Origin: a virus
Taxonomy: Duplodnaviria; Caudoviricetes
Length of the DNA stretch: 64,000 bases
IMG/VR virus record: IMGVR_UViG_3300036770_007283
Direction: 5' to 3' (one strand)
The notes under the pieces: generated by a model
Told to the model about the DNA's origin: nothing
Databases searched by the model: none
Seen by the model: the letters and a program-made list of their open reading frames with translations, nothing else
Shown here: positions 43,783-51,117 of the stretch, one piece after another
Position numbering within the stretch: the first letter of the stretch is position 1
How the letters are laid out: the number at the start of each line of letters is the position of its first letter
Position numbers and translations under genes: made by a program

Positions 43783-45552
43783 CTATCTTGCAGTGAGAGT
43801 ACCGCTGATTGAATTAATTAAAAGATCAATTTTACTTATCAATACGTTCATAACATCTGTTGTGCCATCAACTGCGGTTGCTGCTGCAGAACCAAATTGG
43901 GTTTGTCTAATCTTATTAAATAAATCATCAAATTCTTGTCTAAGTTCTTCAAAAAATTCATCGATATTACCTGCTGCAGTTTTAATTTTATCGAAGACTT
44001 CTTCACCAAGCTCATTAAAATCAACAATTGGTTGATTACCATAACCCCTATTAAATTCGGTAATGTCACCCCGAAATCTATCAACCCCCTCTCTCTGCAT
44101 CCTTCCTACCAATGCTGCCAAAGTATCCGCACTTAATCGGACACCCTCTGTAAACTTTTTGTTTAATAATTGTAACTCAACATAGGTTGAAGCAGTAGAG
44201 GCAGCAGTTTTTTCTTCATATGATGTGGTTTGATTTCTAGCAGAGATTATTTCCTGTAAGTCTGTCCCCAAGGACTCTGCCAAAGATTGGTCACCACTTT
44301 TATTAGCTTCGTTTAATTTTTCTAACAACTCCAAAGTTCTATCTTGTGTTGCGGTATCTGTTATTTTATAAATGTCACTTAATAATTGTGTTTGTGTAAA
44401 AAATGCTTGTTGTAGCCTGGGATCCTTATCTGCTTCGGAGACTGTAACTATATTTCCGCCCGCAAATGAAGATAAAGTATTTTTCATTGCATTAGCTAGA
44501 TCCATCGCTAGTTCTGATTGGTCACCACCCTCTGCTAGTCTAGCCCTCAAACCAATGCTGGCACCCAATGCGCCCTGTCCAGAGCCAATATCTAATCCAC
44601 CTCTTTGAAAAGTTAAATAAGCGGCAGAATAATTAGATGACAAACCCACCAAAGAATTGCTTAATGTTGTTGACAAGCTTAAAGCATTTTCCATACCCAA
44701 GCCCATATCTTCTAAACTATCTGCAAAGCCTTCTAATGCTGGACGACCAAAGCTAGCATTTACACCTAGCTTACTGAGGTTGCTAGCAAAACTATCTAAA
44801 TTATCTGCTATTTTACTTACCTTAAGACCTGTATCTGCTGATATATCACCAAACATAGCCATTTGCTCTACAGCATCTTGTGCTGATAATCCCTGGACCA
44901 TCATGGCACTAGATAAGCCTTTCATATAATCAGTTAAAGTCATCCCCAAAGAACTAGAATGTAAAAATGCTGTATTTAAAAGATCCATACTTCCTGCTGC
45001 GGAAGTTATTGTTTTGCTCATATTTTCTATAGAAATTCCAGCATCAGCCATTGTCTTTGCAACAGCTACCCTATCTGCTGTTGTAATAAACCCAAACTCT
45101 GCAGTTGCAAATTGTTGCGCAGAAGTCATTATATAATCGCTATATTTTTTTGCCTCTTCAAAGCCCTTACCAAAGCCTGCTGCATTCTTATACATTGCCT
45201 CGTTTAGATCCCTTGTGTATGCAGTGGCAACATCCATGGCTTTTCCGAAGCTATTTAAAAGCGTAATTGCTTCGCCGCCAACTCCCAATATTGAACCAAA
45301 AGTTTCGTTAACTTTGTTAAGACCATAGGTAAGCGGACTTAATGCACCAAGTGAAAGCTTGTCGGCAAATGAAGTCATAAGAGATATTGCACCACTAAGG
45401 TTATTATTAACTGCACTAGCAGCCGCCGCAACTTTGTCAAATCCTATACCACCAGAAGCCGCTGCTTTATTTAAGTTATCAAAGGCAGCAATACCACTAG
45501 CTACAGACTGATTTAGTTTGTTTAGAGCTTGTGTCGCTGAATCTGTTGCCAT
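43783..45552 (-). CDS. Tape measure protein
   Basis: Ala/Gly/Ser/Leu-rich and largely helical, located directly downstream of the frameshifting chaperone gene. GGAGAGG RBS. Confidence 0.7.
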   Translation of the reverse strand: MATDSATQALNKLNQSVASGIAAFDNLNKAAASGGIGFDKVAAAASAVNNNLSGAISLMTSFADKLSLGALSPLTYGLNKVNETFGSILGVGGEAITLLNSFGKAMDVATAYTRDLNEAMYKNAAGFGKGFEEAKKYSDYIMTSAQQFATAEFGFITTADRVAVAKTMADAGISIENMSKTITSAAGSMDLLNTAFLHSSSLGMTLTDYMKGLSSAMMVQGLSAQDAVEQMAMFGDISADTGLKVSKIADNLDSFASNLSKLGVNASFGRPALEGFADSLEDMGLGMENALSLSTTLSNSLVGLSSNYSAAYLTFQRGGLDIGSGQGALGASIGLRARLAEGGDQSELAMDLANAMKNTLSSFAGGNIVTVSEADKDPRLQQAFFTQTQLLSDIYKITDTATQDRTLELLEKLNEANKSGDQSLAESLGTDLQEIISARNQTTSYEEKTAASTASTYVELQLLNKKFTEGVRLSADTLAALVGRMQREGVDRFRGDITEFNRGYGNQPIVDFNELGEEVFDKIKTAAGNIDEFFEELRQEFDDLFNKIRQTQFGSAAATAVDGTTDVMNVLISKIDLLINSISGTLTAR

Positions 45553-45563
45553 AATTCCTCTCC

Positions 45564-46010
45564 CTAAGTATTAAATTTATCTATAGTATTTTTAATACTA
45601 GATAAATCAGATGGTAACTTTGCTCTTGATACATCATAATTTTCATTCTGCTTTCCACTTTGCTCTAGCTTTCTCATCCTAATAACTGCATCTAACAAGT
45701 TGTTATTCTTAAAATCGCCTGTTACGATCGACTTCTCAAACTCAGCGTCATCTTTAAACCTATGGTCTGGTGGACTTTTTCTATATTCTTGAATCTTTTT
45801 AACTGCTTCTGCATTCCAGAATGAAGCAAGATAATCTATTTTTGATAATTGTTCCTCGTGTTCTTGTTTTTTATCTTGATATAATAATTCAGAATATAAG
45901 ACCCATTGATGTATGGTTATATCATCAAAGATAGGATCGTCTATTCTACACTTCCAAAGCTTAGATAATTCCCATCGGAGCCAGATTTCTGGCTCCTTTA
46001 TTAGTTTTTT
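45564..46010 (-). CDS. -1 frameshift extension of the tail assembly chaperone (GT-like); missing from the ORF track
   Basis: The -1 frame is open from the slippery site to TAG at 45566-45564 (LIKEPEIWLRWELSKLWKCRIDDPIFDD...IDKFNT, 146 codons). It has no ATG/GTG/TTG in its 5' two-thirds, is closed upstream by TAA-TGA, and fills the 450-nt gap before the tape measure. Confidence 0.8.
   Translation of the reverse strand, partial: KKLIKEPEIWLRWELSKLWKCRIDDPIFDDITIHQWVLYSELLYQDKKQEHEEQLSKIDYLASFWNAEAVKKIQEYRKSPPDHRFKDDAEFEKSIVTGDFKNNNLLDAVIRMRKLEQSGKQNENYDVSRAKLPSDLSSIKNTIDKFNT
45977..46010 (-). other. Programmed -1 ribosomal frameshift signal
   Basis: In-frame heptamer A AAA AAC (46010-46004) lies immediately before the stop. 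It is followed by a 7-nt spacer TAATAAA and the perfect hairpin GGAGCCAG-AAAT-CTGGCTCC (45996-45977). Confidence 0.8.
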
Positions 46011-46543
46011 GAGTTTTCCTTGATGCCTCCATCATTATATAGACCCATTGATCTTTCGACCATCTTTTCATAATGTTCAAAAATTTTATCTACTAGCGAG
46101 GCTTGAAATTCCATAATAACCTCTACTTTTTGTTCATATTCTGACAGATGTTGCTCGCCAGAGTAAATTTCATTTAGTGACAGACCATTAACTGATACAA
46201 TTGCCTCAGCTAAAGTATAAGGTTTTATATTAAGAATTCTTTCATCTTGTTCTATCTTCATTAATCTTTTGACTATTTCCTTTTGCTGCCTGCTTGATAG
46301 TGTTGATATTTTAATTGTTGAATCACCAATAGAAATATCTTCGACCAACTTTCCAAAAAGTGCTAGATTTTTAAACCCAGGGGGAATGGGCTTGTCTTCT
46401 GCTGCCTCATTTTCAAATACTTCCTCGTTAGCTTCACGAACTTTGTTAAGTGCGCCAACAACACCCTGTGGTAAATTACCCATAGCATTCTTAGCTTTTG
46501 TTGCTGTTTGGTGTTCAACTACACCTCGGCCTGTTCTACTCAT
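46001..46543 (-). CDS. Tail assembly chaperone (lambda gpG-like role)
   Basis: It lies between the tube and tape measure genes. It has an acidic alpha/beta chaperone-like sequence (IKISTLSSRQQKEI...LAEAIVSVNG) and ends in a slippery site. Confidence 0.7.
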   Translation of the reverse strand: MSRTGRGVVEHQTATKAKNAMGNLPQGVVGALNKVREANEEVFENEAAEDKPIPPGFKNLALFGKLVEDISIGDSTIKISTLSSRQQKEIVKRLMKIEQDERILNIKPYTLAEAIVSVNGLSLNEIYSGEQHLSEYEQKVEVIMEFQASLVDKIFEHYEKMVERSMGLYNDGGIKENSKN

Positions 46544-47151
46544 TTATCACCTCTCTTAATGTTTTCACTAACTTTAATGCACATGGTTATAAATTGCAAA
46601 TGCGTTAGATTGCCTTTAAACTTTTGACAATCTATACAACATGATACCAGATTATCAATATTATAACCACCGGAAATATTTATCAACTCCAACCTAATTT
46701 TTTTTACTTTAGAACTACAATAAAAACAATCTTTGTTCCAAAAGCTATCAAACTCTTCTAACTCAATACTGAATGGCACCTTTTCTTTTTGTGCTTTTTC
46801 TTTATAGATTGCATAACTTCGTGCTGGTTTATAATTATGACATCTTCTGCATTCTGCTCTAAAATAAGGTGGATTGGGAAGTTTTGAAAAATTATCTAAT
46901 GTTTTAAACTCACCACATCTTTTACAACTTTTTCCGCCCTCACAATTATATTTTTTTTGTGTATAAGAAGCTCTGCCTGATCCAGCACATTTTCTACTGC
47001 AATAAACACCCTCTGCATTTCTTCTTATTACATTATATAATGTTCCATATTTAACTTCAAAATCAGAATTACACCAGGTGCATTTGGCAGGAATAATTTC
47101 TAAATTTTTCCAAATTTCTTTATCATTTTTAAGCTGCTCTAAAGTATACAA
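46540..47151 (-). CDS. HNH-endonuclease-like multi-zinc-finger protein, probably catalytically degenerate (TTG start)
   Basis: Six Cys pairs (CTWC, CSRKC, CKRC, CRRC, CFYC, CCIDC). The C-terminus CFYC...GGYNIDNLVSCCIDCQKFK matches the phage HNH pattern CxYC...GY..xNxVxCCxxCNxxK. Confidence 0.7.
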   Translation of the reverse strand: MYTLEQLKNDKEIWKNLEIIPAKCTWCNSDFEVKYGTLYNVIRRNAEGVYCSRKCAGSGRASYTQKKYNCEGGKSCKRCGEFKTLDNFSKLPNPPYFRAECRRCHNYKPARSYAIYKEKAQKEKVPFSIELEEFDSFWNKDCFYCSSKVKKIRLELINISGGYNIDNLVSCCIDCQKFKGNLTHLQFITMCIKVSENIKRGDK

Positions 47152-47898: not shown

Positions 47899-50800
47899 TT
47901 ATAGGATACCGACTTCAATATCGATAAAGATATAGTTAATTGGATATGCTGGCTGGAATCTCAAATACACATTCCACTGTCTTGGGTCAAGCTTATCTCT
48001 TTCAACCTTAACATTTTTATAACCAGTAATTAATCCTTGTGAGACTAAGGAAGATAAAATTCCAATAATTCTGGATGTCATTGCACCCTGTGTATTGTTG
48101 TCTTCTACAACGCCAACGAATGCTTTGAGTCCTTGTCTTAGAACTTCTTTAACTCTATCTCTAATGAAGATTATGGAAACTTCCTCATCTTCTACGAATC
48201 CAGACTGGCTAGTAGTCCTACCTGCCAAAACCTGTCCACCACCAACAACTGGCTGTACAACTGTGGCACCAACTGCACCTAGTTGATTTAGAATTACAGG
48301 GCGGTACTTCTTATCTCTAAGAATTGTGAAGCCTGAAAGAACTTTGTTAGTTAGTGGTATTGCAACGTTTTGTGTAGCAGATAAATAACCAGCGGCAGCA
48401 GCAGCCATATAGAATCCGTCAATAAAGGTGTTTGCACCCTGAATGGATCTTACTACCTGATCTGGATAGAAATAGACGGCTCTATTGCTGGTGTAGTTAT
48501 CACTAAGCTTGTAGTTTTGTAGATCTTCAGTATTTCCATCAAGAACTTCTTCTGGATCGTCGCCCTGAATACCTTCTAGAATGCCAATGTCTTCTACTGC
48601 AACTTCTTCTAATCCAATAAGAGCCTGAGGTGTTACGCCTTGTTGTGCGCCAAACATTGTAACTCTTTCTTTTTGGATTGCAATAGTGCTCATGGTTTCT
48701 ACGTGCTGAATTGCAGCGCGGAAAATTCCACCCCTATTTTGTAGTGGTAATGGAACTACAATCTGGCACTCTTCTGCTTCTAGAGCCTCAAATGCTTCAA
48801 ACCAATTTGTATCAAAGAAATCTGCATCAACTTCATCAACATAAGAAATCTTAATTCCATCGCCAGACTTTAAAGTTCCGCTAGATACTAAATCTTTGTG
48901 GAAAAGTACTGCGGCTCTTTTGTTGGTAACATCACTCTCATCTTTGATAAAGAATTGCATTTCGGTAGCGCTGTTTGTAAGGCTGGTTGATAAACCATCA
49001 TTAGCAACAACAATAACAGTTTGGTCATCCACAATATCAGTGATTATCAATTCTATACCTACGGTGGTAGAGCCAAATAGTGCAAGGCTAATATCGTCTG
49101 ACTTAGTCTTTAAAGAACCAAAAGAATCTTTAAGGCTCTGGACAACTATAATCTTGCCTACGTCTGTACCATCAAAATTTACCTCTGAACTGGTAAAAGT
49201 TTCTGATGAAGCAGCCACACTGCCAGCAAATCCTTGGCCAATAATCTTGGTATCTGTATTGATTATAGTGTAAGAGAATGGATAGGATGGATTTGATATA
49301 AACTGTGCTTGTCCAGTTGGGCTTTCAATTTGTGAATTGTAAAACTCTACCTTATTTGGGAAGATTTGTGTTTCAACACCCTTTCTGACAACAAAGAAGT
49401 TAACTTGCGAATCGCTTTGTGGTCTTGCTTTTTGTAATCCAGATAGGGGCCTTGGAATTATAAAAGTAAGATCATCTGGTTCACAGTTTGCTGCGTTGCC
49501 ACCGCAGGCCTTAAATCCACCTTGACCATTAGAATTTGCTTCTTGAACTAAGAAGGCAGTTGTTCTTCTTGGAATTGGTGGCTTGCACTGTAAGGCTAGA
49601 ACATAAGGTGCTTGGTTCTCAAAGCAAAGTCTAGCGCCAAGTGATAAGGTATTTTTAACACTCTCTTGACCATGCTTTTTAGCAAGCTCTTGTGCGCTGA
49701 CAAAAAGTTCTGGATCGTTAATATCACTTTCTGCAATATACTTAACTTCTAGTCTATCATTCTTTTTTAGTACTCGGGATTTTACATCGATAAAGAATTT
49801 ATCGCCAACTTCAAATGGAACATTTCCTGCTTTAATTCCAAAGACTAAAACACCATTGGTTTCTAGCATATGGAACTCTAGATCTTTTTCACCTAAGCCA
49901 TCTGCATCATCATCAACTAGGTTAGGGAATCCAACATTTGGCTCGCCTAATTTGCTAACTCTTAATCTTCTAGAAGAAGTTACTTTATCTACTCTGTAGA
50001 ATCCAGAAAGTCCAGGTGTGTCACCGCCACAAATTGCTAAAACCTTTCCAAGATCGGAACTTGAAAAAGCGCCAGCAGTTGCAGGGGCACCAGTTATACC
50101 GTTATGTACTACGCTGGGATCATCAATAAATAAATTCTTTGCTCTAATCTCCCAGGCTACATTGAGTGCATCGTAAGAAAAACTATCAGTTACCAAGGTT
50201 AAGGTTGTGGTATCAGTTCCTAAGTCATAATCGATATCTTCAATTTCAATTCCGGTATATCCATCTGCACAAAGAAAATCACCAGGAACTACCTGGCCTT
50301 GTGTTATAAGATCGCCGTCGAACTTAAAGTATCTGGTAGTAAGTGGTGTAGCATCACCACTTAAAACAACCGAGTTACCTAAACCAAAGTCATCGCTAGT
50401 AGCTACAACAAAGCCGTCTTGGCAGACATCTTCATTTCCTGAAACCGCACCCTTGATGCTAGTATAGTAAGAATCATGAAATAAAATTGGTTGACCACCT
50501 GATGTAGTTATTTGTCCTGATACAGAGCCAGATAATGTAAAAGTAGTTTGGCCAGGAATTGGATCGCCGTTAGAATCTCTGATAACAGAGACTGCTCTAA
50601 GTGTCCATCTTTCTGGTGGTGCGTTTTGATCTAAGATTGAGATAAGATTTACGCTGCCACAGATGCCATCTGGTAAGTAACCATTTCCAACGTTGATGCT
50701 ACTAGCAGACCACTTCTTTCCATCTTGATCACCTATACTAGCGCCCTGAAGTTCAAGGCATCCGGTATCTGGATCAAGCCTAAAATCAAATTGACCATCA

Positions 50801-51117
50801 AATGGTAGTCCATCTAATTCTGCTTCAATACCTCTAAGTGAGGAACCGTTTAAAAATACTTCGGTTCTTCCGCTTATAATTGGTGAAAATTGTAAGCTAA
50901 AGAATCTACCTGCTGGATTTCCATCGGGACTGCAATCTGGATTGCCATCTCGACCATTACCTATAGCTGCTTCAACGACAGTCTCTTCTCTAAGACCTTC
51001 ACCCATAATGCAGGGAATTCTTAATCCGCCCGGGATTGTTACGCCCCGAGAGATTACTCGATCCCTAGCAAATACGCCAGGTTGTACATATCCTGATATT
51101 CCTGGGATGTTAGCCAT
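47899..51117 (-). CDS. Tail sheath protein (1072 aa, with large insertions)
   Basis: N-terminal PGVF motif, and C-terminal sheath domain EEVSIIFIRDRV...YLRFQPAYPINYIFIDI. GGAGG RBS. Confidence 0.92.
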   Translation of the reverse strand: MANIPGISGYVQPGVFARDRVISRGVTIPGGLRIPCIMGEGLREETVVEAAIGNGRDGNPDCSPDGNPAGRFFSLQFSPIISGRTEVFLNGSSLRGIEAELDGLPFDGQFDFRLDPDTGCLELQGASIGDQDGKKWSASSINVGNGYLPDGICGSVNLISILDQNAPPERWTLRAVSVIRDSNGDPIPGQTTFTLSGSVSGQITTSGGQPILFHDSYYTSIKGAVSGNEDVCQDGFVVATSDDFGLGNSVVLSGDATPLTTRYFKFDGDLITQGQVVPGDFLCADGYTGIEIEDIDYDLGTDTTTLTLVTDSFSYDALNVAWEIRAKNLFIDDPSVVHNGITGAPATAGAFSSSDLGKVLAICGGDTPGLSGFYRVDKVTSSRRLRVSKLGEPNVGFPNLVDDDADGLGEKDLEFHMLETNGVLVFGIKAGNVPFEVGDKFFIDVKSRVLKKNDRLEVKYIAESDINDPELFVSAQELAKKHGQESVKNTLSLGARLCFENQAPYVLALQCKPPIPRRTTAFLVQEANSNGQGGFKACGGNAANCEPDDLTFIIPRPLSGLQKARPQSDSQVNFFVVRKGVETQIFPNKVEFYNSQIESPTGQAQFISNPSYPFSYTIINTDTKIIGQGFAGSVAASSETFTSSEVNFDGTDVGKIIVVQSLKDSFGSLKTKSDDISLALFGSTTVGIELIITDIVDDQTVIVVANDGLSTSLTNSATEMQFFIKDESDVTNKRAAVLFHKDLVSSGTLKSGDGIKISYVDEVDADFFDTNWFEAFEALEAEECQIVVPLPLQNRGGIFRAAIQHVETMSTIAIQKERVTMFGAQQGVTPQALIGLEEVAVEDIGILEGIQGDDPEEVLDGNTEDLQNYKLSDNYTSNRAVYFYPDQVVRSIQGANTFIDGFYMAAAAAGYLSATQNVAIPLTNKVLSGFTILRDKKYRPVILNQLGAVGATVVQPVVGGGQVLAGRTTSQSGFVEDEEVSIIFIRDRVKEVLRQGLKAFVGVVEDNNTQGAMTSRIIGILSSLVSQGLITGYKNVKVERDKLDPRQWNVYLRFQPAYPINYIFIDIEVGIL

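Follow-up and report, generated by a model that had tools for sequence, protein, structure and literature searches.

A probable programmed −1 frameshift in the tail assembly chaperone gene of an uncultured jumbo phage with a contractile tail

What is encoded between two tail genes of an uncultured phage, in a region where gene callers find nothing? The stretch of DNA that we analysed (the window) is 64,000 nucleotides (nt) of the IMG/VR record IMGVR_UViG_3300036770_007283, and all coordinates are on the whole window. In the gene calls on record, which are for an identical contig, nothing is listed between a gene for a 180-amino-acid (aa) protein and a gene for a 589-aa protein. According to the original prediction for this locus, callers of open reading frames (ORFs) had missed a frame here that is reached by a −1 frameshift at the end of a tail assembly chaperone gene, and the recorded calls do leave the region empty. 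We think it very likely that this is a programmed −1 ribosomal frameshift of the lambda gpG/gpGT type, in the tail chaperone gene of a jumbo phage with a contractile tail. We refer to the 180-aa ORF in the 0 frame as G, to its extension in the −1 frame as T, and to the predicted fusion as GT.

The slip site and the −1 frame

In the ORF listing, the genes of this module are all on the minus strand. The 3' end of G reads TCA AAA AAC TAA, with the stop codon (TAA) at 46003..46001. The elements around this stop codon are:

46001..46543, minus strand: G, the 0-frame tail assembly chaperone, 180 aa (P0001; from the ORF, an AlphaFold model, fold matches, and hhalign)
46004..46010, minus strand: slippery heptamer A_AAA_AAC, in X_XXY_YYZ phase with the G frame and with the stop codon of G directly next to it
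45997..46003, minus strand: 7-nt spacer TAATAAA, which includes the 0-frame stop codon (read from the sequence)
45977..45996, minus strand: proposed stimulatory hairpin with an 8-bp (base pair) stem, GGAGCCAG/CTGGCTCC, and the loop AAAT (from folding; conserved in relatives)
45564..46004, minus strand: T extension, 146 codons (P0002) plus the stop codon TAG, in the −1 frame (homologues align from residue 1)
45564..46543, minus strand: predicted transframe product GT, 326 aa (G residues 1–180 joined to T residues 1–146; assembled from its parts)

The −1 frame is free of stop codons from 46031 to 45564, where it ends with TAG (45566..45564). Counted from the slip site, it has 146 codons, and the TAG is 11 nt ahead of the ATG at 45552. 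As originally claimed, this frame has no conventional start: the first ATG, GTG, or TTG does not come until codon 102 of T, which is a TTG (45698). The predicted junction in GT is ...ENSK(N/K)-LIKEPEIWLR. The other details of the original prediction were correct as well. These were the A_AAA_AAC heptamer, the 7-nt spacer, and the 8-bp hairpin, along with the 146 codons, the TAG 11 nt before an ATG, and the predicted products of 180 and 326 aa.

The two arms of the hairpin (45996..45989 and 45984..45977) form a perfect 8-bp helix with six G-C pairs. For the 91 nt around the slip site, the predicted folding energy is −26.9 kcal/mol (z = −4.3 relative to dinucleotide shuffles). In this fold, a second predicted helix (GAUGGGA.../...UCCUAUC, 45930..45976, minus strand) directly follows the 8-bp hairpin. 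An Rfam scan of 45400..46700 found no known RNA family. Across the minus-strand ORFs of the window, there are two in-phase XXXYYYZ heptamers within two codons of a stop codon, including the one in the chaperone gene.

Relatives of T and the conserved slip site

We compared the locus to other phages and viral contigs. In the GenBank phage collection, blastn with the region and tblastn with G and T found no match; only the tail sheath gene reached a phage there, which was Bacillus phage G (phage G). When we searched viral contigs, G alone found no relative. With T as the query, tblastn found homologues of the extension on at least 95 viral contigs from IMG/VR, at 33–60% identity and with E values down to 1e-53. 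These homologues align to T from the first codon after the heptamer. The related contigs reach lengths of 211–395 kb, and the window encodes a contractile sheath, so the original description of this virus as a jumbo myophage is fair.

Our sample for detailed comparison was 80 of these loci plus the window. One locus (L064) is cut at the end of its contig and gave no heptamer, which leaves 80 informative loci, including the window, of which 50 are distinct. Each of the 80 has a G homologue (143–194 aa) upstream, and the T homologue is read in the −1 frame relative to it. All 80 also have an in-phase heptamer at the end of G: A_AAA_AAA in 50 loci, U_UUA_AAA in 21, and A_AAA_AAC in 9. The original prediction had named conservation of the heptamer as a test, and it is in phase in every informative relative.

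The A-type heptamers abut the stop codon, and U_UUA_AAA sits one codon ahead. In the U_UUA_AAA group, the second lysine codon has become GAA (giving AAAAGAA), and a TTT precedes the first lysine codon. Thus, the slip site has moved one codon upstream and has been kept by a compensating change.

Do the relatives have an ordinary start codon for T? If they did, this would count against a frameshift, as was recognized originally. An ATG, GTG, or TTG by codon 10 of T, ahead of the conserved RW.LCK motif, is present in just 5 of the 50 distinct loci, at no shared position. The commonest position for a potential start in the T frame is codon 39 (29 loci), which is after the most conserved motif of T, RLRW.LCK.W.C..DD. 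Judging from these comparisons, the −1 ORF is coding.

The stop codon of G varies slightly. In L021 and L022 (1490..1510), it is a TGA that follows A_AAA_AAA, which creates an ATGA overlap, so that an ATG of the T frame coincides with the slip site. Among the 50 distinct sequences, 1 has TGA as the stop codon of G.

Conservation of the hairpin

We then asked if the relatives maintain an RNA structure after the heptamer. A hairpin is predicted there in nearly all of them, with no fewer than two designs of stem that are unrelated to each other. The 45 nt that follow the heptamer have a median predicted folding energy of −15.75 kcal/mol, versus −4.8 kcal/mol for control segments of 45 nt from further inside the same T ORFs, and z is below −2 for 62% of the distinct loci. 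A stem of the type seen in the window (GGAGCC..GGCTCC) is present in 37 distinct loci and is often extended to 10–12 bp. Another 11 distinct loci have a different helix, GCTCCC../..GGGAGC, which is formed from different codons. Its 3' arm lies in codons for Trp-Glu-Leu, eight bases further on, and the position of its 5' arm varies. In two loci, as in phage G, the stem is weak. The distance from the heptamer to the hairpin is 3–8 nt, and in many relatives the predicted helix comes as close as 3 nt.

In stems of the main type, pairing is seen in 74% of cells, versus 30–54% if the partner is slid. The pairs near the loop swap between AU and UA (7:7) and among AU, GC, GU, and UA. (The column-wise count of covariation is for the main type of stem; the second type was judged by folding energy, as its arms are at shifting positions.) The choice of synonymous codons at the stem is also strongly constrained. 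Glutamate is encoded by GAG in 35 of 36 cases, compared with 32% elsewhere in these genes, and leucine is encoded by CTC in 26 of 37 cases, compared with a background of 6.4%. These stem counts come from loci that are not independent in phylogeny. Even so, identity among the proteins is down to 35–60%, so synonymous sites should be saturated.

As judged by predicted folding, a stable RNA structure downstream of the slip site is maintained in evolution. Covariation in the stem had been proposed as a check of the frameshift, and we find that the stem is maintained both by covariation and by alternative stems.

G and T resemble tail assembly chaperones

Neither G, nor T, nor a neighbouring 319-aa protein has a match in Pfam or PHROGs at E values up to 0.01. 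In the AlphaFold model of G (49 sequences), the core (residues 60–170) has a predicted local distance difference test score (pLDDT) above 90. We compared this model to 48,161 solved chains. The best matches are the tail assembly chaperone of HK97 (2ob9, Z = 7.8) and YqbN of B. subtilis (3klu, Z = 7.7); the next match has Z = 4.2. Residues 49–168 of G align with these two chaperones (100/104 residues for 2ob9 and 101 residues for 3klu), but with just 5–7% identity and a root-mean-square deviation (rmsd) of 4–5 Å, and the Z scores are below what makes a fold certain. Also, unlike them, G has an extra helical region at its N terminus. With Foldseek, no PDB entry matched the G model significantly (the HK97 chaperone ranked second, with E = 0.18).

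Against BFVD, Foldseek matched the G model to gp181 of phage G (E = 7e-7, template modeling score 0.82, rmsd 2.9), as well as to gp182 of phage G and to annotated chaperones of actinophages. For the T model, gp182 of phage G is the only clear structural match in BFVD. Profile comparisons with hhalign agree: G aligns to gp181 with a probability of 98.5%, and T aligns to the −1 part of gp182 with a probability of 96.5%. Overall, the model of G appears to have the fold of a tail assembly chaperone. Its Z scores are middling, and the support comes from their gap to other folds and from the BFVD matches. The upstream protein had originally been called a tail assembly chaperone, and the modelled fold agrees with this, given its similarity to the HK97 chaperone, YqbN, and gp181.

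Two other features of the G model are of interest. Ranked after the chaperones, it also matches proteins named as T4-like baseplate hub assembly or hub subunit proteins in BFVD, from uncultured Caudovirales and from Campylobacter phage CP220 (E of about 0.01–0.05), a hint that the folds of tail chaperones and of T4-type hub assembly proteins may be linked. And residues 1–55 (46379..46543, minus strand) have pLDDT values of 42–61, are predicted to form helices, and are poorly conserved among the relatives. These N-terminal residues (about 55) are absent from gp181 of phage G, which has 115 aa, and from the HK97 chaperone.

Other explanations for the conserved sequences

Instead of being fused to G, T might be a separate protein of 14–17 kDa, translated from the ATC at 45986 or by termination and reinitiation at the stop codon of G. 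An AGGAG is indeed present ahead of this codon (AGGAG-N6-ATC), which is in the T frame, and the ATGA overlap of L021 and L022 (one distinct sequence) provides an ATG at the slip site. But the AGGAG is part of the 5' arm of the hairpin, which is why this start was originally disfavoured, and the ATC is not conserved either: relatives have TTC, AGT, or other codons at this position. The few canonical starts near the beginning of T, at no common position, do not suggest a separate start, which would also leave unexplained the in-phase heptamer of all 80 loci and the compensating change to U_UUA_AAA. Moreover, the annotation of phage G treats its homologous pair as a frameshift fusion. We consider a separate T protein to be highly improbable. 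RNA polymerase could also join the two frames: if it added one A within the A-run, then GT would be one continuous frame in some mRNAs. Fusions of this kind are known to arise from slippage on homopolymer runs (PMC5009743). The window has 6 A in this run, and most of the relatives have 7. Runs of 6–7 A are shorter than is usually needed for efficient transcriptional slippage, and the U_UUA_AAA G of 21 of the 80 loci has only 4 consecutive A, which is too short for polymerase stuttering yet is still a heptamer that allows tandem slippage. The phase of the heptamer relative to the G frame is strictly kept, which matters to ribosomes but not to polymerase, and a conserved hairpin at 3–8 nt has the geometry of a ribosomal stimulator. 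Hence polymerase slippage has very little chance of being the explanation.

An alternative that concerns the hairpin is that it acts as an intrinsic terminator for antisense (plus-strand) transcripts, or as an mRNA stability element, and that any frameshifting depends on the heptamer alone. On the plus strand, the hairpin (45977..45996) is followed by TTTATTAGTT, and a consensus scan scored it as terminator-like. The frameshift between lambda's G and T is described as needing little downstream structure. However, there is no plus-strand gene or ORF of at least 100 aa upstream, and the whole module is on the minus strand, and the T-run on the plus strand is merely the complement of the slippery A-run and the spacer. 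On the sense strand, there is no T-run after the stem, so the stem is not a sense-strand terminator. Also, the stem of the relatives keeps its distance from the heptamer even where it is rebuilt from other sequences. This role for the hairpin seems unlikely, if less so than the other two explanations. We considered and rejected the ATC start, transcriptional slippage, and the antisense terminator on the evidence above.

Several points do weigh against a programmed ribosomal frameshift, or against parts of our description of it. Within the A+T-rich window, a heptamer with a hairpin after it is no rarity by chance. The density of in-phase XXXYYYZ heptamers in the ORFs is 3.4 per kb, and on both strands of the window, there are 17 heptamers that are followed by a perfect hairpin of at least 7 bp, versus 4.5 in shuffled sequences. 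(Among the stem arms printed, the slip-site stem has the highest G+C content, 5/7, and most of the others are A+T-rich.) The pattern in a single sequence is not rare, and therefore its significance comes from its position and context and from its conservation. In synthetic constructs in E. coli, A_AAA_AAC and A_AAA_AAA are far less prone to shifting than A_AAA_AAG (PMC5009743); E. coli may not represent the host of this phage. The predicted structure after the heptamer is weak in L024, L029, and L068 and in phage G. Within the main helix, the covariation is modest, with both sides changing in 3 of 12 pairs. The main stem has a 6-bp core that overlaps with conserved codons for Glu-Pro and Leu-Arg, so part of the conservation of the stem is at the protein level. 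The assignment of G and T to the chaperones is based on fold and on remote profile homology to gp181/gp182 of phage G, and they lie outside the curated chaperone families (Phage_TAC in Pfam, and PHROGs). The tape measure assignment is weak, being based on position and on a sub-threshold match to PF20155, and the protein has no detectable similarity to the tape measure protein of phage G. Finally, GT itself is a predicted product, which we know from its sequence.

Comparison with known frameshifts in tail chaperone genes

The closest known system is in phage G. Its RefSeq genome (NC_023719, 110944..112046) lists gp181 and gp182 as tail assembly chaperones, with gp182 as a coding sequence that is joined from two pieces. 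The two genes are placed downstream of the sheath gene and two tube genes and upstream of the tape measure gene. The pieces of gp182 are joined at GAA TTA AAA AAC TAG, which is A_AAA_AAC followed by a stop codon. At the position of gp182, a paper from 2025 about phage G names a "programmed frameshift tail chaperone protein" (PMC12484599). So, phage G is a jumbo myophage with remote homologues of both halves of GT, with A_AAA_AAC directly before the stop codon, and with the same order of sheath, tube, chaperone, and tape measure genes. The two systems have diverged greatly, though. The parts that align are about 17–26% identical, and the pair is not detected by tblastn. The G protein of phage G has 115 aa, versus 180 aa in the window (with about 55 extra residues at the N terminus), and its T has 252 aa, versus 146. 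By eye, phage G has a weak 5-bp stem after the slip site, as compared to the G+C-rich hairpin of 8 bp in the window. The tape measure protein of phage G has no detectable similarity to the window's candidate.

The original prediction had presented this architecture as noteworthy in a jumbo myophage. The complete arrangement of slippery site, spacer, and hairpin is there, but it is not novel, as a frameshifted chaperone with the same site was already annotated in phage G. The element in the window belongs, as a distant member, to a family that already has a correctly annotated representative in culture, phage G, and the mechanism has been known since 1993.

In lambda, gpG and gpGT are produced by a −1 frameshift at G_GGA_AAG (Levin et al. 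1993; Xu et al. 2004, 2013, 2014, cited in PMC5009743). Lambda also has overlapping ORFs between the genes for the major tail (or tube) protein and the tape measure protein, its −1 ORF has no start codon, and its heptamer is near the end of G. The expected role of the frameshift, to give a fixed G:GT ratio for tail assembly, is alike as well (PMC5009743). In contrast to the window, lambda has another heptamer, is a siphophage rather than a jumbo phage with a contractile tail, and has no detectable sequence similarity. The conserved hairpin, which is a proposed stimulator, and the heptamer that abuts the stop codon are features of the window relative to lambda.

Frameshifting of this type is reported to be widely conserved in long-tailed double-stranded DNA phages, with A_AAA_AAC among the known shift sites (PMC5009743). 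It also occurs in P2-like myophages and in archaeal tailed viruses, including HCTV-2, which shifts at A_AAA_AAC (PMC5009743). We liken E/E+E' of P2, which is a −1 frameshift of the G-T type in a contractile-tailed phage, and g-t of HCTV to the window by mechanism, as described; the sequences are unrelated.

Proposed mechanism and its implications

If the frameshift operates as we propose, then most ribosomes would make the 180-aa G protein and would terminate at the TAA after A_AAA_AAC. While the 8-bp hairpin, 7 nt further along, resisted being opened, a minority would move back by one base on the heptamer, with the tRNAs for AAA and AAC re-pairing to AAA and AAA. The slipped ribosomes would then read 146 codons in the −1 frame and produce the 326-aa GT. 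By analogy to lambda, G and the G part of GT would coat the tape measure protein, and the T part would recruit the tube protein. The efficiency of frameshifting would set the G:GT ratio, and neither protein would be kept in the virion, if lambda is a guide. We infer the slippage itself, its efficiency, its dependence on the hairpin, and the binding partners from these parallels.

More tentatively, the hairpin might be an obligatory stimulator in this lineage, unlike in lambda, and might have been rebuilt at least twice from different codons (GGAGCC/GGCTCC and GCTCCC/GGGAGC); the adjacent stop codon might also take part, with a pause at termination favouring slippage. We find this possible but somewhat doubtful. 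If it is true, then the natural variants (at least 50) are a ready-made series for dissecting how −1 frameshifting is tuned in bacteria.

The 448-nt gap that gene callers left is now filled with a coding region. Both in this uncultured jumbo phage and on the roughly 95 environmental contigs related to it, the identities of the tube protein, the chaperones G and GT, and (as a candidate) the tape measure protein are now fixed. The result is useful for annotating this large group of environmental phages, and the locus is a clean example from nature of how a slip site and its stem are maintained. The family, which includes gp181/gp182 of phage G, shows that the slip site and the hairpin are preserved through compensating changes. 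The finding leaves the knowledge of phage tail assembly, or of frameshifting, unchanged.

Neighbouring genes

The order of the genes in this module is sheath, tube, an HNH gene (an insert), G, T, and the candidate tape measure gene. The features besides G and T are:

47899..51117, minus strand: contractile tail sheath, 1072 aa (PF17482, tail-sheath PHROGs, and tblastn to the sheath of phage G)
47281..47886, minus strand: tail tube protein, 201 aa (phrog_985, PF26461 Phi812_tail_tube on the record, and tblastn to gp179/gp180 of phage G)
47238..47263, minus strand: strong intrinsic-terminator-like site with an 11-bp stem, AAAAACCCCC.../...GGGGGTTTTT, then a T-run; it is after the tube gene and ahead of the HNH, G, T, and tape measure genes
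46540..47151, minus strand: HNH/endonuclease VII-like gene, 203 aa (phrog_1035, E = 3e-12); its stop codon overlaps the start of G (ATGA)
43783..45552, minus strand: candidate tape measure protein, 589 aa (P0003; positioned 11 nt after the stop codon of T, with syntenic homologues in relatives)

The 589-aa protein has a weak match to PF20155 (TMP_3; E = 7e-4), which is below the Pfam cut-off. A pairwise BLASTP comparison of this protein to the tape measure protein of phage G found nothing significant. In the relatives, the synteny of the sheath, tube, G, T, tape measure, and 319-aa protein genes is kept.

The terminator-like site may cause the chaperone and tape measure genes to be transcribed less than the sheath and tube genes. 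The HNH gene looks like a mobile insert that encodes a homing endonuclease. Among the relatives that we compared, it is found only in the window and in L001; in L003, L006, L008, L011, and L013, G comes directly after the tube gene.

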